From: an uncultured Planctomycetia bacterium
GTDB taxonomy: Bacteria > Planctomycetota > Planctomycetia > Pirellulales > Thermoguttaceae
Assembly: GCA_963815695.1 (NCBI GenBank)
Contig: CAWFIG010000022.1
Span: 96,648-160,647, forward strand
DNA length: 64,000 bases
Direction: 5' to 3'
Part shown: positions 12,972-64,000 of the stretch, piece after piece
Position numbering within the stretch: the stretch's first letter is position 1
How the letters are laid out: each line of letters begins with the position of its first letter
Notes under the pieces: model-generated
Told to the model about the DNA's origin: nothing
Seen by the model: only the letters and a program-made list of their open reading frames with translations
Database searches by the model: none
Position numbers and translations under genes: made by a program

Positions 12972-13051
12972 GATATTCCTGTAGACGCAAATCATCCGTT
13001 CGATCCCACTACCCACTACCGCACTGACCGGCAGCTACCGCACTACGCCGA

Positions 13052-13957
13052 CTACGCCACCTTATGCCTTGTCGGTTCCGAAGCGGGGTTTTTGCACGAA
13101 TTGACGGGTGGGGTGATCTTAAAAACCCGCATCATACGAAATTCCCTCAGAAAATCATCCACCGATTTGGGGCGTGCGTCACGTTTTTTGGAGAGCGACC
13201 GCCGAATCAACTGGGAAAACTCCGGCGTGACGTTGTAGTTGAGCGCCTCCAACGAGGGGGGCGTCGACTCGCAGATGTTTGTTCAGCAGGTCGTTCGTGC
13301 TTGTCCCCGTAAATGGGGGTTTGCCGGAAAGTATCTCGTGGATGCGTGCAGGCAAAGCTGTACAGGTCGGCCCGACCGTCCAGGGCCTGGCCGCGGATCT
13401 GCTCGGGCGAAATGTAGCTCTTGGTCCCCTGAATCAGCCGTGCCTTGGGGGTGAACCAGTGCGTCAGCCCGTGCCGGCAACGCTTGGCCAGGGCGAAATC
13501 GATCAACTTCACGTCGCCGTCGTCGGTCACCAGGAAGTTGTCGGGCTTGATATCGCGGTGAATCCAGCCCATTCCGTGGAGATAGCACAGGGCCAGGCAG
13601 CCTTGGTCGATGATCTTCGGCATCAACGGGGCGATCTTCTCCGCCCCTTGCAGGAACCGCTGCTTCATGTTCGGCGAGGAGAACCACTCCATCGCGAAGT
13701 ACGGCTGGCGAGGCGTCCCAAGGCGAGGGATAGATCTCGATGATGTTCGGATGCTGCAGTCCTTGCCCGACGGTGTATTCCCATCGCAGATAGTGGACTT
13801 GCTCGCGGTCCTTCGCGTCCTTTTCCAGCAGCGTCTTCACGCCCACGATCCGCTGGTTGGCGTCGTCATAAGCCTGCCAGATCAGGCTGGCGTGGCCGGT
13901 ATGAACGACGTTCAGCAGGCGATAGGGCCCGAGATAGCCGGGAACAGGTTTCGCCAC
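13052..13957 (-). CDS. serine/threonine protein kinase, apparent frameshifts
   Basis: Stitched from 13283..13957 (GPYRLLNVVHTGHASLIWQAYD...VGVKTL), 13207..13692 (LHGMGWIHRDIKPDNFLVTDDGDVKLIDFALAK...GTKSYISPEQ) and 13052..13252. Confidence 0.8.
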
Positions 13958-27678: not shown

Positions 27679-27783
27679 GGGGAGGCGATAGTAGGTAGTG
27701 GGTCAGTGGATCAGACGCCGCTTGCGGTTTCGCAGTGCTGATCGTATGCCGCCGAGCCGATTTCTGTCAAAGGGGGGGCCTGA

Positions 27784-34673: not shown

Positions 34674-34707
34674 CGGTTAATCCCTAATCCCTAATCCCTA
34701 ATCCCTC

Positions 34708-38965: not shown

Positions 38966-39236
38966 GCTCCACCGGCCCCGTGCCGGTGGACAGACGATTG
39001 GCCACTACCGAGGGCTTGCACAACTCCACGTCGCTCCACCGGCCCTGTGCCGGTGGGCGAAACGATTGGCCGCTTCCACGCCCGGCCCGCACAATCATTC
39101 GCTCCACCGGCGCGGGGCCGGTGGGGGCGATGACGCGAGACCTTTGCGGCTGTAGTGGCCAATCATTCGCTCCGCCGACGCGGTGTCGGCGGGGGCGGAG
39201 CGTTGCAACGAAAACCGTATCATTGGCCCGCTCCCC
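38966..39236. repeat. tandem array of four 67-68-bp units, each with an 8-bp-stem hairpin
   Basis: Units start at 38966, 39033, 39101 and 39169. Each begins GCTCCACCGGC-N5-GCCGGTGG. Unit 4 has CCGCCGAC-gcggt-GTCGGCGG, i.e. two compensatory base-pair changes. Confidence 0.85.
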
Positions 39237-40621: not shown

Positions 40622-41851
40622 CTATGGTACGAGTCGGGCGTCGAGCCAGTCGGCGTGGTCGAGGACGTCGGCGCGGTCGGCGTAATCGACTAGTAGTTCT
40701 AGCTTCTTCGCGCCGCGAACATCGACGGAAACCGGCAGCGGGGCGTCGCCGCCGCGGACGATTGGACTGGTGAAACGTTCCTGGCCATCGACCAGGACGC
40801 GGAAGATCACGCTGCCGCGGCCTGGCGGTCGAGTCGTCGATGCCGACCTTGGCCTCGAAACGATGGAAACGACTTGGAAATTTCGGAGACTTGGGGATCC
40901 GCAGCCTCTGACCCCTGACCCCTGACCCCTGACCCCTCAGCTGCCCTTACCCCCTGCCCCTCTCCCACCGGCGGAAGAGGGGAGATTGTGTAGACCAGCC
41001 GGGCGGCGCTGTGAACGCCGAGGCCTTTCAGATAAAGCTGGCCGCTCGCAGCGGAGCATGCCGCCGGTGACGTTGCGGTCGCGGCGATACGGCCACGGCA
41101 GGCGAGGAACGGCGTTTGGCGATACTCGGCCGGCTTGAGGTCGGAGAGATAGACGGCGCGGCCGCCAGCGGTTGAAGGAAGACGAGCGGCGAGCGCTTGG
41201 CCCGTAAGCGTTTGGCCGGCGGCCGTGATTTTCAGCGAATCGCCTTCGAGCAACAATTCCGTGGCCAACAGCCGGCTGCCGTCGCTGAAGCCTGCCCAGA
41301 CTCGCAGCGAGTCGGGCTTGACGGCCAGTTTTCGCCGCAAGGCGGGGTTGAAGAGGATGGCCGTGATGCGGTCGGTCTTGACTTCGGACCGGCGCCGGCG
41401 TCGGTCTTCAACGTGACGGCGTCGTCGGCGATGCCCTCGAAGAGGCCGGCAAGCTCGTCGCCGTTGTCCAACAGCAGGCGGTCGGAGTCTCCGGCGGCGT
41501 TGGAGAGGCGATCGAGCAATAAGTCGTGCTGCTGGCGGTCGGACAGGCGCGAAGGACGATGCCGGCCAGCACGTCGAGCGGCAGCTTCAGCGTTCCGAAC
41601 AGATCGGAATCGGCGGTGAGCCGGTCCTTGTCGGCGGCGACCACCTCGGCCGTCAAGCAGGCTGCCGTCGGCCAAGACGAGCCCCCCTGCCCTGCCCTGC
41701 TCCGGGCATTGTCCCCAGCGGACCAGATCGGCCGCCGGCATGGTGCGTCGCTCGTTGCCGACGGCGAAGGTGAGTTGCCAGTTGGGCGTCGACGGCGACC
41801 AGCTTCGCCGCGGAACGGCTCGCCGTCGACGGGAACGGCCACGGGGCGCAT
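40622..41851 (-). CDS. NPCBM/NEW2-domain protein, frameshifted and carrying a repeat insertion
   Basis: C-terminal ORF 40622..40810 (IFRVLVDGQERFTSPIVRGGDAPLPVSVDVRGAKKLELLVDYADRADVLDHADWLDARLV). Upstream fragments 40807..41340 (YLKGLGVHSAARLVYT), 41232..41906 and 41408..42025. Start MRPVAVPVDGEPF at 41851. Confidence 0.6.
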
Positions 41852-41871: not shown

Positions 41872-41962
41872 AATGCAAAATGCAAATTGAAAAATGCAAA
41901 ATGCAAATCTGAAATTCGAAATTGGAGATTTCAAATTCGAAATTGAAGATTTGAGATTGAAG
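41872..41962. repeat. AT-rich heptamer tandem array, 13 units in perfect register
   Basis: aatgcaa aatgcaa attgaaa aatgcaa aatgcaa atctgaa attcgaa attggag atttcaa attcgaa attgaag atttgag attgaag (91 nt = 13 x 7). Confidence 0.95.
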
Positions 41963-41993: not shown

Positions 41994-42035
41994 GCCCTCT
42001 CCCCTCTCCCCTCTCCCCTCTCCACTACCCTACCG
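41994..42035. repeat. C-rich heptamer array (GCCCTCT, CCCCTCT x3, CCACTAC, CCTACCG)
   Basis: Counted directly. Overlaps the stop codon (42030-42032) of the prenyltransferase-repeat gene. Confidence 0.9.
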
Positions 42036-47319: not shown

Positions 47320-49722
47320 CTATACCATTCCCCGGCGTTTTCTCGTAATATCCATTCGGCGATCAGCAGCAGCAGGAACAGCGCCAGCACCGGCCAGCGG
47401 TTCCAGAGCGGACGCGGCGGCAGCGATTCGATGGGCACCTGGCGGCCGGGCGGCAGGTCGTCGCAGCAAGCGGTCGGCCGTGTCGAACGTGTAGAATCGG
47501 CCGCCGGAGATTTCGGCGGCCGCGCGCATGGCGGCGGCGTCCATGCGCACTTGGGCGAATTCGCCGGGCGGCGGAACCACCGTGAAATCGACCGCCGGCG
47601 ACTGGCCCTGGCAGCGTCGGGCGCGGCGATCCAGGCGTGATAGCTGCCCGTGGCGGGCCGATCGAGCAGGCCCTCGAAGACGCCGCGGGCCGGCGGCCGC
47701 GCGGTGCAGCGACATCCGCCGCGTCTTTCGCCCGGACTGCTCGACCACGACCGTCACGCCGTCGTCTTCGGCCGGGGCCAGCCGCTCGTCGGCGAACCGC
47801 ACCCGCAGCCGCACCGACTCGCCCTGGGCGATATTCGCGGCGGTCGGTCGTGAGAGTGGCCGCGCGGCCGGCGTCGGCCAGCTTCGAGCGGCAGAGGTAG
47901 CGGATCGTCTGAATCCAGTAGCGGGCGAAATAGACGTCGCCGACGCGATAACGCCATCGCCAGGTCTCGTCGGTGGCGTGGAACAGCACCTTGCCGGCGC
48001 CGACGTACTGGAAGCAGGATCACCGGCAAGCGGCGGCCGTCGGGGCCGGTTCGCGTGGGGTGCTCGGCCAGCACGCGCACGCCCGGCTTCAACTCGGGAA
48101 TCTCCAGCAGCCAGTACAGCGGCGGCAGATTCTTCCAGATCCGCTCGCGTCTCCTCCGGCGTGTCGCCCAGTTGCATGGAGGGGCTGGCCAGGCCGAGAT
48201 CGGTCGGCTGCACGACGAAACCTTCGGTGAGCGTGTCCGGTCGGATAGCCGGACGCGATCGACCGAGAACGGCAGCAGCCGGGCCAGCGGCGTGTCGCGG
48301 AAGGCCGCCGGCATGTACGACGGGCCGGCGATCACGACCAACGAGCCCCCCTTGGCCGGCTGATCGACGAAATCGGCCAGGTTCTGCATCGCCGCCGAGT
48401 CCAGCAGAGCCGGATTCACGTCGCCGAGGATCACGACGTCGTAGGCGAAAAGGTCTTCGCGCCGCAACGGGAAGGCCCGCAACGACGAGGCGTCCTGCTC
48501 GGCGTTCTCCGGATCGGCGTCTTGCAGCACGGTGTCGAGCGAGATCGTCTCATCGCGGCGGAGCATGTTCCGCAGGTAGCGGAACTCGAAACTCGGATAA
48601 GCTTGAACCAGCAGCACGCGGATTTTCTCCTTGCGGACCTGGACAGTGCGCGTCTGCCGGTTGTTTTCGGTCAGCGACTCGCCGGCCAGCGGCTGGGCCT
48701 CGACGACGTACTCGAACTGGCCGACCTTGGTGGGCCGGTATTGCAGGCGGACCCGCAACGGCCGGTCGTCGGTCGGGGCGGTCACCTCGGTCTTCGCCAG
48801 GATGTTCTCCGGCGTGGTGGGCTTGTCCTTTTCGCGGAGTACGATCGAGACCTTTCGCCCCTCGAAACCCGCGGCCGTCAGCTTGCACTCGAAATTCACC
48901 ACGTCATCGACGAATACGACGTCATCGACCATCAGATCGGAGAGCTTCAGATCGCGGACGGGCCGATCGCTGCCGAGGCCGACGAAATAGAGCGGCACGC
49001 CACGCCGCTGTGCGTGCTCGGCCGCGTCGGCCAGCGTTGGGCCGTCGGTGTTGATGCCGTCGCTGAGCACGACAACGGCGGCGGGGGCGGCGCCGCGCAA
49101 GTCGTCGAGCGCCGCACGCACACCGGCGCCCAGCCGGGTAGTCTTCCCCTTGGGGGCCAACGATCGCAGCTCCGCGACGATGCCCGGCACGTCCTGGCGC
49201 GGGCTGGCGCGAACCCGTGACAAAATAGACCCGCAACTTGTGACCGGCGGCGATTCCGCGCAAGAGGCTGCCGTCGCGCTCCGCCGTCAACGTTCGCAGA
49301 AGATTCCAGCGGCTCAAATCGGTCGCGCCGAGGCCGCTGCGGCGCAACCGCGCGGCCATCGCCTTGCGAGGCTTCTCGGCGTAGTGATCCACGATCGTCA
49401 TGCTCTGCGAGTCGTCGATCAGCACGGCCGCGTAGGGCAGTCCGGTGCGTTTCAACGAAAGCGTAACCTGGGCGATCATCAGCAGCAGCAGCCCGAGGAG
49501 CGCAAGCCGCAGGGTCGCCAGCATGATCCGATAGCGCCGCGTCGCACGGGTGCCTTCCCGCCAGTAGATCATCGCCACGAAGGCCACCGCCAGCGCCACC
49601 AGCAGCAGTGTCACCCAGGGCGGCCAGGGCCACGCCGAGTCGATCGACCAGACCGTACCCTCTCCGCTCCCGGTGCTGATACCGAGCAGGCGTTCGACCC
49701 AGGGTGGCATGACGTGGTTCAT
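47320..49722 (-). CDS. von Willebrand factor A-domain membrane protein, multiple apparent frameshifts
   Basis: ORF 48922..49722 ([24 protein letters not shown]...[11 protein letters not shown]). ORF 47754..49223 ([33 protein letters not shown]...[11 protein letters not shown]). ORFs 47363..47989 / 47320..48213. C-terminal [21 protein letters not shown]. Confidence 0.7.
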
Positions 49723-49723
49723 A

Positions 49724-49828
49724 GGTTAGTGGGCAGTCGGCAGTCGGCAGTGGGCAGTGGGCAGTCGGCGGTCGGCAGTCGGCAGTCGGCAGTCGGCAGT
49801 GGGTAGTGGATAGTGGGTAGTGGGTAGT
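49724..49828. repeat. heptamer tandem array, 15 units in perfect register (consensus SGGYAGT)
   Basis: ggttagt gggcagt cggcagt cggcagt gggcagt gggcagt cggcggt cggcagt x4 gggtagt ggatagt gggtagt gggtagt (105 nt). Starts 2 nt upstream of the VWA gene ATG (49720-49722). Confidence 0.95.
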
Positions 49829-49865
49829 GCGAAACCGCAAGCGGTTGTGAAGATATGACGAAGTT

Positions 49866-49935
49866 CATCTCTCATCCCTCATCCCTAATCTCTCATCCCT
49901 CATCCCTAATCTCTCATCCCTCATCCTCTCCCCCC
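49866..49935. repeat. C-rich heptamer array, ~10 units with a 21-nt super-period (CATCCCT CATCCCT AATCTCT)
   Basis: Counted directly. Overlaps the 3' end and stop region of the BatA-like gene. Confidence 0.95.
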
Positions 49936-52085
49936 AGTTTCCATCCCAGGAAGACCTCCGCCAGCGCAGGCCGAGCGCCGCGTAGAGGAGATCGACGTGC
50001 AGCCCTTGCTGGCCGTGGGCCGTCCCGACGCCGGCGCCTTTGATGTCTTGCCAGGAAGTCTGATAGACGAACGGAATGTCCGGCCACGTCTGGTTGCGCA
50101 GGTCGTCCGCATCGATTTGTGCAAGGTCGCTCTCCGTCGTATCGACGTTGACCGCGAACGTCTGGCGGCGGTTGGCCGGCGGGCCGAACTGCACCGTGTA
50201 GATGCCGCTTTGCAGCGTGTCGGCGTACGTCAGGGCGAAGCGGTCGCCGGCGGGCTGCAACTGCGCGGGCCGCTTGCGGCCGTCGGGCGATTGCACGCTC
50301 GCCGACGATATGCCGCCCGACGACGTCAAGGCGTCGAACGTATCGCCCACCAGGACGTTTCGCTGTTGGAGTTGCCCGGCCGCACACCAGGCGACGATCT
50401 CCTGCACCAGCGGGACGAAGCTCGGCCAGAGCGGCATGGCGGTCCACGACGGCTCGGCCGAGGTGCCCACCAGCACGACCCGGCCGCGATGGACCGATTG
50501 CTCGATCACCAGCGGATCGCCGTTGCCCAGCGCCAGCACGGTCGTCGCGTGCGACTTCTTCGACGGCGTCAGTTGGTAATGCTTGAAGACCGGCGTGGTC
50601 AGCAGGCTGGTTTGTCCGCGGCCGCGAAACGCCTCGAGAATCGGATGCCGATAGCCGAGCGGATCGAGCCGGAACTGCGGCTGATCGACGACGTTGCCGA
50701 TGCGGGCGGGCAGAATGTGCGGCCCCCCTGCCCTGCCCTCCCCGGCGACGCCCAATTCGCGATTGTAGCGGTCGGCCAACACCTGATCGCCGAGGAAGAA
50801 GACCACGCTGCCGCCGCCCTGCAAATAGGCATCCAGGGCGCGGGCCTCGCTGGCGGTGAACTGGGCGACGTTGCAAAGGAACAGGCAGTCGTAGCGTTGC
50901 CAGGTTGCGCTCCAACAGCGCGCTTCTCCGTGGCCACCTCGGCTTGCAGCGGCGACTGGTCCGACCTTTCGCCTTGCGGCGTCGAGCGCCACGGCGAGAT
51001 AATCGGCGGCGCCGCGGAACGAACCGCCCGAGGGCCGCCCGTCGATGCACAATGCGCGGATCGCTTGCCGCAGCGGTCAGGGCCAGATAGCGGTGATTGT
51101 CGATCTCCAGGGCGTCGCCGGGGGCGCGGGCCTCGATGGCGTGATCGCCGGGCGACATCGAAACGATACGAGAACTCCGACCGCGCCGCTGCCGTCCGGT
51201 GACAATTCCGCTTGGGTCTGCGCGATCCTTCGCCCATCGACGAACAGTTCCACAAGTTGGCGATTGCGCGGCGGCGGCGACCGAAATGCTGCAGACGAAC
51301 GTGCAGGGGCGTGTCGCGGCCGACGGTGACCAGCGAATCGGTCGTGCGGAGATCGGTAATCGCCAGATTCTCCGCCGACGGCTGGCCCAGGTCGATCACG
51401 AACAGGTCGGCCAGTTGGGTCAGTTGGCTGGTCTGTTCGAGGAACTGGGCGCGGGCCGTCTGCGAGAATTGCGGCGCCCATGTGACTGCGCTGCAAGTCG
51501 GTGAGGAAATAGACCTCATGGCGGTCGAGCCGGGGGTTCTCGCCGGCGACCTTCTCGATCAGTTGCCGAATCGCGGGAATCGCCGCCGGCAGATCGGCCA
51601 CGGTATGCGGAAGCTGCAAGTTGTCGATCTCCTCGCAAAATGGCAGCGGACTCCAACGCCGCCGTGCCGACGACCACTCGCGGCGTCGACGACATCAGCA
51701 CCAGCGTGAAGGCGTCGCCCTGCGGGCTGTCGCTGACGATCTGCCGGGCAAGCTCCTTGGCGTGGTCGAATCGCGTCTTGTCGGCCGGCTTGTAGGCCAT
51801 CGAGTAGGAGCCGTCGAAAACCAGCACGCGGTGGACGTGGCTGCCGGGCGTGAAGGCCATGCCCGCCCGCTCGATGTACGGCTCGGCCACCGCCAGCACC
51901 ACTAGCACGACCAGCAGCGTGCGAACGGCCAGCAGCAGCCATTGCTCGAACAGCAGCCGCCGCGTCTGCCGCCGCACGGCCGCCAGCAGATACTCCATCG
52001 CCGCGAACGACATTTCCCGGTACTTCCGCCGGCTCCACAGATGGATCAGGATCGGCGCAGCCGCCGCCCCCAGCCAGCCGAGCAT
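49914..52085 (-). CDS. BatA-type protein (N-terminal double-TM domain), multiple apparent frameshifts
   Basis: ORF 51516..52085: MLGWLGAAAAPILIHLWSRRKYREMSFAAMEYLL...LLLAVRTLLVVLVVLAVAEP...VLVFDGSYSM. Further fragments 51077..51619, 50599..51519 and 49865..51052. Restored end AEVFLGWKLGGEDEG-stop (49914). Confidence 0.7.
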
Positions 52086-52134
52086 CGGCAGGCTGACCCA
52101 TCCAAAGGCGAGAAGTGGCGGCAGCGAAGGGCAT

Positions 52135-52175
52135 GGTGGATAGTGGGTAGTGGGTAGTGGGTGTGGTTAGTGGGT
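52135..52175. repeat. heptamer array (AGTGGGT)x4-5
   Basis: ggtggat agtgggt agtgggt agtgggt gtggtt agtgggt. Lies ~50 nt upstream of the BatA-like start. Confidence 0.9.
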
Positions 52176-52572: not shown

Positions 52573-52610
52573 GTTCAACTCTACGATCGAAACAAGACCA
52601 GATTCTCATT

Positions 52611-52645
52611 CTACCCTACTACCCACTACTTCCACTATCCTCTCG
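52611..52645. repeat. heptamer array, inverted form of the 52135 array (ACTACCC-type units)
   Basis: ctaccct actaccc actactt ccactat cc. Overlaps the DUF58 stop codon (52635-52637). Confidence 0.8.
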
Positions 52646-53528
52646 ACGCCAAGTAACTCGCCAACGTCACTTCCAACGGCCGATCGGTTCGCATCGGCAC
52701 GTAGTCGATCGCGTGGGCACGGCAGCCGGCTTGCAGCTTGCGCACGTAGCGGCCGAACTCGGCTAGATAGGCTTTGCGAATCGCCCGCGGCTCGACCAGC
52801 ACGTCGGGCAGACTCTCCAGGCCGCGGAAGAGCGTGATCCGCTCGAACGGGAAATCGACCTCGGCCGGATCGAGCACGTGCATCAGGACGACTTCGTGCC
52901 GGCGATGACGCAGGTGCTTCAGCCCTGTCATCAGCGAATCGACGTCGTCGAACAGGTCGCTCAGCACGATCACGATTCCGCGCCGCTTGATCCGCTCGGC
53001 CAAGTCGTGGAAGATCGGGCCGATCGACGGTCTTTCGCTCGGCCGACGTGGCTTCCATGACGTGCAGGATCTCTTTCAGATGCGACGGATTGCTGCTGGC
53101 GCGGACCAGCGAGCGGATTTCGCTGTCGAACGCGACCAGGCCGACGCTGTCTTGCTGGTGCAGCACCAGATACGCCAGCGCCGCGGCCGCACGCCGGGCG
53201 TAATCGAGCTTCGACATGGCCGCGGCGTCGCTCGGTACCGCATGCTCTCGCTCGTGTCCAACAGCAGGTGGCAGACCAGGTTCGTCTCTTCCTCGAACTG
53301 CTTCAGGTAGTATTTGTCGGTCCGTCCGAACACTTTCCAGTCGAGATACCGCAGGTCGTCGCCGGGCGAGTAGTCGCGGTGCTCGGCGAACTCGATCGAG
53401 AAGCCGTGAAAGGGGCTGCGGTGGACGCCCGCCGTGTAGCCCTCGACCGTCCGCCGCGCGCGGAGCGGCAGCGCTTGCAGCCGGGCAAGCATTTGCGGAT
53501 CGAGGAGTTGCTGGGAGTGGTCGGACAT
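52635..53528 (-). CDS. DUF58-domain protein, apparent frameshifts
   Basis: ORF 53076..53528 ([50 protein letters not shown]), a middle fragment in the frame of 52606..53865 ([20 protein letters not shown]) and ORF 52635..53003 ([12 protein letters not shown]...). Confidence 0.8.
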
Positions 53529-53570
53529 CGGCGGATCGCTGCACGGTGAAGCCGCAAGCGGCTAGGGGGT

Positions 53571-54613
<1,043 letters not shown>

Positions 54614-59222: not shown

Positions 59223-59351
59223 CACCCAGTAGGTCCCGCCTGCCGGGCGGGACTTGTGTGCGTACCGTCTCGAGAAGTCCCGCCTGCCGGGCGGGACTTG
59301 CGTGCATACCGTTTCGAGAAGTCCCGCCCGGCAGGCGGGACCTACTGGGTG
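59223..59351. repeat. REP-like palindrome cluster (three GTCCCGCC-N5-GGCGGGAC hairpins inside a larger palindrome)
   Basis: Hairpins at 59233-59253, 59277-59297 and 59321-59341 (the third is the exact inverted form). Two ~44-bp direct repeats. Outer arms cacccagtag / ctactgggtg. Confidence 0.9.
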
Positions 59352-63655: not shown

Positions 63656-64000
63656 AGGCACAACGGGGGGAGATAAAGCCGCTCGCGGCTTCGCAATGTC
63701 TTCATTTGAAATTTCAGTTTTCCGACATTCCCCCATTCTGCCCCATCGGGCGACTTTCCAACCAGCCCTGGATGATGAAAAAGCGGGAGGTTACAATGGA
63801 GGTTATGGCCGGAGGCGGCGAAAAAGGGGACAGGTCCATTTTTGCCGGAACGGCCCGGAGGGTGCTTCGCACAAATCGGCCTGTCCCCTTTTCCGGCCGG
63901 CAATCCTGACAGTCACGCCTGCAACTGCCCCGATGATAGCCTCACGCCCTCCGTGGGCTAGGCGGCGGCAAGCTTAGAAGGAGCACTGCCCTGAGCAAGA

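Follow-up and report, generated by a model that had tools for sequence, protein, structure and literature searches.

Why should two neighbouring genes of one operon be separated by DNA made largely of seven-nucleotide repeats, G-rich behind the first gene and C-rich in front of the second? This question is raised by a 191-nt spacer in a 64,000-nt stretch (the window) of contig CAWFIG010000022.1 from an uncultured Planctomycetia bacterium. The spacer lies on the minus strand between a gene for a BatA-like protein and a gene for a membrane protein with a VWA domain. It carries two heptamer arrays, called here the G-arm and the C-arm, on either side of a short hairpin. The explanation that we hold somewhat more probable than not is that of a composite element of a known kind: heptamer arms grown by slippage on a hairpin resembling a repetitive extragenic palindromic (REP) sequence would have uncoupled two ancestrally coupled genes, the orientation of the arms being filtered by selection and their effect being modulatory. 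The parts of the spacer are as follows.

49723 to 49829, minus strand: C-arm, 15 in-register heptamer units (from repeat scans, folding and composition).
49828 to 49846, minus strand: hairpin or palindrome AACCGCTTGCGGTTTCGCA (from conservation among close alleles, dispersed copies and one covarying pair).
49865 to 49935, minus strand: G-arm, a purine-rich heptamer array of about 9-10 units (from repeat scans and composition).

Tandem Repeats Finder located one period-7 array at 49728-49829 (14.6 copies, 90% matches, 0% indels) and a second at 49865-49926 (8.9 copies, 0% indels). A separate period scan gave arrays at 49724-49829 (15.1 units) and 49865-49926, and the motif GCGAAACCGCAAGCGG is found between the arrays at 49829-44. 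An earlier note, made from the letters of this DNA, had described two such arrays with a motif between them in a gap of about 190 nt; both scans confirmed this arrangement, and the gap is 191 nt when measured from the TGA at 49914-16 to the ATG at 49720-22. In the window, period-7 arrays cover 413 nt, whereas periods 8 and 9 account for 24 and 32 nt, respectively. Arrays of this kind cannot have originated by chance.

The C-arm is composed, in order, of three CTACCCA units, one CTATCCA, ten CTGCCGA or CTGCCCA units, and CTAACCT. The regular units stop 7 nt short of the ATG, and the degenerate final unit CTAACCT fills this gap and abuts the start codon. The C-arm contains 50% C and 16% G, is predicted to be essentially unstructured, and is the second-longest among 136 intergenic arrays. 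The G-arm is built from GAGGATG, AGGGATG and AGAGATT units in a 21-nt super-period, which the earlier note had recognized (2.9 copies, 100% matches in Tandem Repeats Finder). In the mRNA sense it begins with GGGGGGA, followed by GAGGATG, AGGGATG and AGAGATT, and it contains 52% G, 32% A and 0% C. It starts in the last codons of the upstream gene and provides the stop codon of that gene. Because the genes are on the minus strand, the G-rich array comes first in the mRNA and the C-rich array precedes the start; in other words, the order is G-arm, a linker of about 20 nt, the hairpin AACCGCTTGCGGTTTCGCA, C-arm and ATG. The order of C-rich and then G-rich repeats proposed previously is reversed.

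Comparison with 77 orthologous loci indicates how this spacer came about. The two genes overlap by 4 nt in 45 of these loci and by 1 nt in 6. Since the genes of 51 of the 77 relatives overlap, the spacer is derived, and the overlap (ATGA), the usual arrangement for translational coupling, is most likely ancestral. No promoter-like or terminator-like site is present on either strand of 49300-50300, which includes the spacer, and a promoter or intrinsic terminator in the spacer was rejected on this ground. Because of the overlaps and the lack of such sites, the two genes are assigned to one operon and the spacer is very probably transcribed, which supports the earlier supposition. Larger orthologous spacers occur mainly in the closer clade, where they are filled with heptamer arrays of differing unit sequences; the purine- or G-rich array always follows the stop and the C-rich array always precedes the ATG. 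The seven closest alleles, whose downstream proteins are 75-100% identical in their first ~110 residues, form the following series.

Window: G-arm 8.9 units, C-arm 15.1 units, hairpin present.
L006: G-arm 0, C-arm 10.3, hairpin present.
L003: G-arm 6.3, C-arm 4.6, hairpin present.
L083: G-arm 3.9, C-arm 3.6, hairpin present.
L084: G-arm 8.9, C-arm 0, hairpin present.
L001: G-arm 4.7, C-arm 0, hairpin present.
L002 (42-nt spacer): G-arm 0, C-arm 0, hairpin present.

An eighth allele, L105 from a JGI metagenome, has a short G-arm and no C-arm. The hairpin is the sole part of the spacer that is conserved in all seven close alleles; in L009, arrays are present and the hairpin is absent. When metagenomes were scanned with the downstream gene start as the anchor, no matches were obtained. 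The earlier note had held that identical unit numbers in all strains would argue for a neutral slippage product. The numbers in fact differ greatly among relatives (0-15), but this comparison does not discriminate, as it fits neutral slippage and tuning alike. Because close relatives do without one or both arrays, the element is dispensable, and any effect on expression would be modulatory rather than that of a dedicated switch.

The arrays are not confined to this site. In 1.25 Mb of orthologous loci, period-7 arrays occupy 5367 nt, compared with 409 nt for period 8 and 335 nt for period 9. Their main concentration is in the closer Thermoguttaceae loci, most of which have such arrays; few are found in the distant Pirellulales loci. 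Because they are also present in short-read (Illumina) assemblies, they are not a long-read artefact. The window holds at least 10 of them. When the coding strand was called by a codon-usage model, to cope with frameshifts, 136 of 160 arrays were intergenic. C-rich arrays are typically of 3-5 units, and unit families such as GAAGGAT, AGTGGGT, GCAAATT, GGATAGT and AGGGATT recur in many species. The arrays adjoin genes of all kinds, with no particular functional class. Far from being a device peculiar to this operon, the spacer is one member of a class of heptamer arrays that extends over the genome and the clade and that often has the same dispersed hairpin at its centre.

Arrays of this class follow a rule of polarity. 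In co-directional spacers, the sense strand is C-rich in 41 and G-rich in 6 of the arrays that lie closer to the downstream start, and the reverse holds closer to the upstream stop, with 49 G-rich and 7 C-rich arrays (Fisher p = 8e-15); both arrays of the window spacer conform. Divergent and convergent spacers contributed 8 and 2 cases, respectively. The 5' half is G-rich and the 3' half C-rich in 68 of 73 array-bearing spacers. A general skew of intergenic composition was ruled out as the cause by the array-free spacers, in which the skew is absent in distant relatives (92/174) and weak in close ones (113/187). Mutation bias of the replicated or transcribed strand cannot explain the polarity either, because the skew flips inside a single spacer. 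It should be mentioned that the rule stated in terms of genes is algebraically identical to a strand-symmetric rule: whichever strand is read, G prevails in the 5' half of the spacer and C in the 3' half. Two arrays of the window, at 13005-13025 and 40905-40937, seem to go against the rule, being G-rich in sense and nearer the start; the former may belong to a small unannotated plus-strand open reading frame (ORF) starting near 13065.

The earlier note had also proposed RNA folding of the spacer. The predicted energy of the window spacer RNA is -49.8 kcal/mol, compared with -69.0 ± 4.5 kcal/mol for dinucleotide shuffles (z = +4.2), and 200 of 200 shuffles fold better. The leader formed by the C-arm is almost unstructured in the prediction (-18.8 kcal/mol over 158 nt). 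A long hairpin between the G-arm and the C-arm was therefore rejected at this locus, for single-stranded DNA likewise, although such a hairpin is formed in other spacers such as that of L020. When z values were obtained from mononucleotide shuffles for 70 array-bearing spacers, that of the window spacer was the most positive, whereas 22 of the 70 were below -2 because their two arms are complementary. Since the fold varies in this way, the conserved property of the spacers is the polarity and not the RNA structure. In the orthologous spacer of L020 (3770-3980), the arms are reverse complements (GAGATGA/GGGATGG, then TCATCCC) and form a hairpin of -100.7 kcal/mol (z = -9), followed by TTTTT. 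This spacer looks like a giant terminator inside the operon, as far as the predicted fold can tell. The longest tract seen is in L074 (8431-8910), where about 480 nt of CGCCTAA and TGCCCAA heptamer arrays lie upstream of the BatA-like gene.

The position of the C-rich arrays affects the predicted state of the start region. For genes with a C-rich array ending 25 nt or less from the ATG, the median minimum free energy of the region from -60 to +40 is -11.3 kcal/mol, compared with -24.0 kcal/mol for other genes, and the unpaired probability is 0.68 compared with 0.48 (p about 1e-7). Flipping the array in silico abolishes this openness and restores structure in 16 of 17 leaders. Of all 41 near-start arrays, 37 are predicted to be less structured as they stand than when flipped (p = 1e-10); near stops, this difference is weak (31 of 49, p = 0.02). 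SD-like (Shine-Dalgarno-like) motifs occur in none of the 41 near-start arrays and an ATG in 3, whereas of the 49 near-stop arrays, 40 have a stop triplet, 20 an ATGA and 29 SD-like motifs. In these models, the orientation on the start side is well explained by selection for open leaders that have no SD-like motifs and almost never an ATG.

The C-arm lies where a ribosome-binding site would be expected, as had been pointed out, and SD-like motifs are correspondingly rare in leaders of this type: they precede 3 of 39 array genes and 55 of 191 array-free genes (p = 0.004). The further claim that no Shine-Dalgarno sequence is left is true at the window gene. This is, however, not special, because about 70% of the genes of the lineage are without one (an SD-like motif is found in only ~30%); the array-free alleles of the downstream gene in relatives also lack it. 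The leader sequences suggest that translation initiation in this lineage is largely SD-independent. In L001-L041 and the window, positions -2 and -1 of the predicted starts are CC in about half of the genes (C 49-53%).

Known structured elements were looked for as well. Rfam 15 gave zero matches at the gathering score in the whole window, and the spacer gave only chance-level hits (E > 1); a known RNA family or riboswitch was rejected for this reason. The canonical G-quadruplex (G4) motif (four G3+ tracts separated by N1-7) is absent from both strands of 49700-49950, so that a canonical G4 at the spacer was rejected. The G-arm qualifies as a G4 only if loops of up to 12 nt are allowed. Elsewhere in the window, the complements of three four-unit arrays, at 34678-34706 (TAATCCC), 40905-40937 (CTGACCC) and 41995-42023 (CCCTCTC), are canonical G4 motifs.

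The hairpin between the arms is itself a repeated sequence. The stem of AACCGCTTGCGGTTTCGCA has at most 6 pairs (AACCGC/GCGGTT), but a stem of 5 pairs (AACCG/CGGTT) that closes a CUUG loop is more likely; a tail follows. A terminator U-tract is absent at the hairpin, the stem of at most 6 bp being followed by UUUCGCA. There are 3 copies in the window, including those at 27716 and 63677, and the 1.3 Mb of loci contain 18, which point in either direction. Covariation is seen at one stem pair, which is GC in 8 copies and AU in 6. The exact 19-mer is found in at least 120 metagenome contigs, with 48-66% GC among the matches listed. Among the same listed matches, the flanking genes are in the orientations ++ in 34, -- in 26, +- in 17 and -+ in 6. 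Such contexts favour gene 3' ends, a preference shared by REPs and terminators. The hairpin is thus a short palindrome with many extragenic copies lying mostly at gene 3' ends, and in this respect REP/REPIN-like; no GTAG or CGTC tag is visible in its motif.

The flanks of the hairpin, again among the metagenome matches listed, show the heptamer period, with lag-7 match fractions of 0.36 and 0.32 compared with ~0.27, and CTNNCCA units stand in phase directly after TTTCGCA in roughly one quarter of the copies. These in-phase units are the only feature specific to the orientation of the hairpin. The G/C skew around it was rejected as a proof of coupling between the hairpin and the arms, because a strand-symmetric polarity looks alike for both directions of the motif. 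The copies at 27686-27734 and 63677-63695 have 2 and 3 mismatches, respectively. The former is preceded by the G-rich heptamers TAGTAGG, TAGTGGG and TCAGTGG, which correspond to a C-rich array abutting the ATG of a minus-strand gene at about 27678.

Small dispersed repeats (SDR) are reportedly nested inside the heptanucleotide short tandemly repeated repetitive (STRR) sequences of cyanobacteria, in work said to go back to Mazel and colleagues in 1990 and Elhai and colleagues in 2008. If so, the present arrays share with them tandem heptamer families common to a clade and small hairpin-forming dispersed repeats embedded in arrays, but differ in phylum and sequence. Like the long simple sequence repeats (LSSR) and STRR in general, the planctomycete arrays are head-to-tail 7-nt units beyond chance, mostly intergenic, found at many loci, shared within a clade and variable in copy number between genomes.

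The closest likeness in polarity is to the GGGNATC and GGGGA(C/T)T heptameric repeats of Xanthomonas and Nostoc (Rehm et al., 2015, PLoS One, PMC4692102). These repeats are over-represented in non-coding DNA between aligned ORFs, vary between close relatives and are transcribed; their function is unknown. Their G-rich strand is the coding strand within 50 bp after a stop, often overlapping it, and the non-coding strand within 50 bp before a start, irrespective of ORF orientation; four units are preferred (PMC4692102). The arrays described here have the same unit length, the enrichment in non-coding DNA, the location mostly between co-directional ORFs, the inverted pairs and the variation in length and sequence among close relatives. 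The polarity at stops and starts (49:7 and 41:6) is also the same, and the window arrays of four units at 34678, 40905 and 41995 match the four-unit preference. They differ in phylum (Planctomycetota), in unit sequences and in the conserved dispersed hairpin flanked by arms; moreover, the arrays of the window spacer are long (15 and 9 units rather than 4) and are without canonical G4 potential.

In the LSSR survey of Mrazek et al. (2007), as summarised in PMC4679880, heptanucleotides are the commonest class among repeats of 5-11 nt, and polymerase slippage was proposed. The heptanucleotide unit and the proposed origin are common to the arrays of this study; the LSSR work is, in that summary, a general survey that describes neither a hairpin nor a polarity rule. 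TAACTGA direct repeats lie just upstream of start codons in marine Beggiatoaceae, for which a role in translation was proposed but not tested there (MacGregor, 2015, PMC4679880). They, too, are forward-oriented heptamers within a few nucleotides of the start codon that replace a canonical ribosome-binding site, but they have a single unit sequence in 2-6 copies, no partner array after the stop and no hairpin. The window hairpin resembles REP and REPIN sequences (PMC3116915; PMC3733652) in being a short extragenic palindrome with many copies, mostly at gene 3' ends and rarely between divergent genes; these, in contrast, are not flanked by heptamer arrays, and the window hairpin has no visible GTAG/CGTC tag, nor was a RAYT gene identified, although no search was aimed at one. 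The present arrays, as heptamer repeats with the polarity described by Rehm et al., are of a known kind, and as far as our searches show, their occurrence in Planctomycetota is undescribed. In addition, they show a hairpin-centred architecture and a clean evolutionary series at one site.

How might such an element have formed? In the composite explanation favoured here, two arrays of the STRR/LSSR type would have arisen, most probably through slippage in replication, one on each side of a dispersed hairpin that is small and REP-like. This element would have been inserted and expanded between two overlapping (ATGA), translationally coupled genes, so as to uncouple them, and its unit number would drift fast between lineages. 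Selection acting on the mRNA might sort the arrays by orientation, on the start side at any rate: C-rich, G-poor arrays with almost no ATG and no SD-like motifs would keep the initiation region open. As a result, the VWA gene, uncoupled from the upstream stop, would be initiated SD-independently on an unstructured leader. Several observations weigh against this explanation. Transcription across the spacer and any translational effect are inferred. Avoidance of structure is weak near stops (31/49, p = 0.02), yet the bias there is equally strong (49:7). About one third of the array-bearing spacers form very strong hairpins (L020, -100.7 kcal/mol, z = -9), so that the unstructured state is not general. 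As an untranslated stretch of 105 nt that is rich in C and poor in G, the C-arm resembles a site for Rho loading, and such a site would be polar and not helpful. The same units are found in many species, which simple local slippage does not predict. Finally, the strand-symmetric rule needs no genes, and an intrinsic mechanism of array formation could yield the polarity without selection; since the orientation on the stop side is not explained by open leaders, intrinsic handedness of array formation remains a serious rival.

This handedness is central to the alternative of a purely selfish or neutral element, in which the hairpin would be mobile or recombinogenic in the manner of REP or SDR sequences and the G-rich 5' and C-rich 3' arms would be a by-product of array making (hairpin-templated slippage or template switching), with no meaningful effect on expression. 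We regard it as rather unlikely, though with a substantial chance. It accounts for a polarity that is strand-symmetric and independent of gene orientation, which is also the case for the repeats of Rehm et al. ("irrespective of the ORF's orientation"; PMC4692102). It is also consistent with the hairpin being found in at least 120 metagenome contigs, in both orientations to genes and mostly at gene 3' ends (++ 34, -- 26, +- 17, -+ 6 among those listed), with the period-7 flanks, with unit families common to several species, and with arrays that close relatives can dispense with. On the other hand, the near-start arrays avoid ATG and SD-like motifs and are far less structured than their flipped versions, which fits selection, and L009 carries arrays without the hairpin; a transposase or RAYT-type gene was not seen either, though no search aimed at one was made. 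A more elaborate proposal takes the hairpin and two arms as one unit, made or spread by a dedicated mechanism that adds 7-nt units with fixed handedness (G-rich 5', C-rich 3') and would be the same in cyanobacteria and xanthomonads; in SD-poor planctomycetes, the C-arm would have taken on the role of an SD-independent ribosome landing pad free of structure, its length tuning the ratios of the operon genes. This seems quite improbable.

Regulatory functions of the arms are possible, but the data require neither tuning, nor G4/i-motif formation, nor Rho attenuation. It is doubtful that the element is an adaptive tuning or contingency device, in which the unit number of the C-arm, or of both arms, sets how fast the VWA gene is translated in relation to the BatA-like gene. 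The array does abut the start codon in place of any SD, relatives carry between 0 and 15 of its units, another array of this family lies at the start codon of the previous operon gene, and there are analogues in the AGAT repeats upstream of Moraxella uspA2 and the TAACTGA repeats upstream of Beggiatoaceae starts. Nevertheless, the arrays are beside genes of all kinds, as Rehm et al. also report (PMC4692102), the variation is seen between species-level relatives only, and loss of the arrays is tolerated. By analogy with the proposal for the GGGNATC repeats, G4 on the G-rich strand and i-motifs on the C-rich strand might modulate transcription or replication. The arrays at 34678-34706, 40905-40937 and 41995-42023, with four units and G3-4 tracts, form canonical G4 motifs and match the four-unit preference of Rehm et al., and the G-arm could form a G4 with loops of up to 12 nt. 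This mechanism is very unlikely for the spacer, where the canonical motif (loops of 7 nt or less) is absent on both strands and the complement of the 15-unit array is mostly GG and not GGG; a GGG/CCC tract is present in only 71 of 136 intergenic arrays. Hardly to be expected is a Rho-dependent attenuator, for which the 105-nt C-rich, G-poor, ribosome-free leader would serve as a rut site coupling transcription of the VWA gene to its translation. Its 50% C, 16% G, 23 YC dimers and near lack of predicted structure would suit Rho, but such a site would be polar inside an operon of normally coupled genes, and C-rich arrays, usually of 3-5 units, are too short for Rho loading.

The genes around the spacer are, in order and all on the minus strand, MoxR, DUF58, a small ORF, BatA_N-VWA and the VWA membrane protein (from Pfam and the ORF list). 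Judged by its protein homologues and by 80 orthologous loci, the window belongs to the Thermoguttaceae-like metagenome-assembled genomes (MAGs) of Planctomycetota. The features next to the spacer are as follows.

49914 to 52133, minus strand: upstream gene with BatA_N, VWA and a C-terminal domain (Pfam BatA and VWA_2; homologues of 684-692 aa).
47320 to 49722, 3' end approximate, minus strand: downstream gene for a membrane protein with a VWA domain (Pfam VWA and DUF7408).
52136 to 52175, minus strand: second C-rich array with units CTACCCA and CTATCCA as in the C-arm (from repeat scans and N-terminal comparison).

The upstream gene has several frameshifts in the assembly. Its ends were set by comparison, the N-terminus with L001 and the C-terminus with L001, L002, L083 and L084. 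This placed the true start at ATG 52131-52133, which is masked by a 1-nt insertion in the assembly, and the true stop at TGA 49914-49916. The second C-rich array, within the operon, abuts this true start codon; L001 has no array there but an ordinary 37-nt spacer. The downstream gene is also frameshifted; its start is ATG 49720-49722 (MNHVMPPW...), which is conserved in L001, L002, L083, L084 and L105. Relative to L001, L002, L083 and L084, the assembly has a 1-nt deletion near 49960, owing to which the assembled upstream ORF runs through the array to a stop at 49865. The upstream protein of relatives ends in WKLGAR followed by a stop, and in the corrected frame the TGA at 49914-16 lies in the second array unit. 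The earlier reading of the array as RDERLGM repeats reaching into the 3' end of the gene holds in that this frame is present and the array overlaps the gene end; the frame is open only in the assembled sequence, and the repeat peptide is probably an artefact of the deletion and not a real C-terminal extension. The plus-strand ORF at 49855-50043 (SHPSSLI repeats) is antisense to a conserved gene end and built from the array, and is regarded as spurious. In the whole window, the MoxR, DUF58, BatA-like and VWA genes are frameshifted every few hundred bases compared with homologues (e.g., 47320-49722, 49914-52133 and 52600-54613). These frameshifts are most likely indel errors of a long-read MAG assembly rather than pseudogenisation, and the contig names of relatives also suggest long-read assemblies; related contigs come from ERZ25039466 and ERZ25039480.

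Several other repeats were observed in the window. At 41872-41958, AT-rich heptamer arrays of AATGCAA and AAATTTG with 21-nt super-periods lie beside the G-rich array at 41995. Many related genomes contain the GCAAATT/GCAAAAT family, whose arrays often stand in complementary pairs and then form strong hairpins. At 38966-39125, a 68-nt unit is repeated in tandem (2.4 copies, 79% matches). In the divergent intergenic region at 59233-59341, three copies of a 21-nt palindrome, GTCCCGCC-TGCC-GGGCGGGAC, are separated by near-identical 23-nt segments with a 44-nt period, inside a larger inverted repeat, CACCCAGTAG ... CTACTGGGTG.

The reports on STRR (1990), LSSR (2007) and GGGNATC repeats (2015) raised the question of why 7-nt repeats accumulate, and why they do so with a fixed strand polarity by genes. 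The present locus adds a third, unrelated phylum to the record of heptamer arrays. The in-silico flip test provides a falsifiable reason for the orientation on the start side, namely open leaders without SD-like motifs and almost without ATG, and leaves the stop side unaccounted for. As to annotation, arrays can provide stop codons and, in error-prone assemblies, can also yield spurious repeat-peptide tails such as RDERLGM. At one orthologous site, a natural series leads from overlapping genes through a bare 42-nt hairpin spacer to spacers with one arm and with both arms of up to 15 units. This series makes the growth of the arrays and their effect on translational coupling directly testable.

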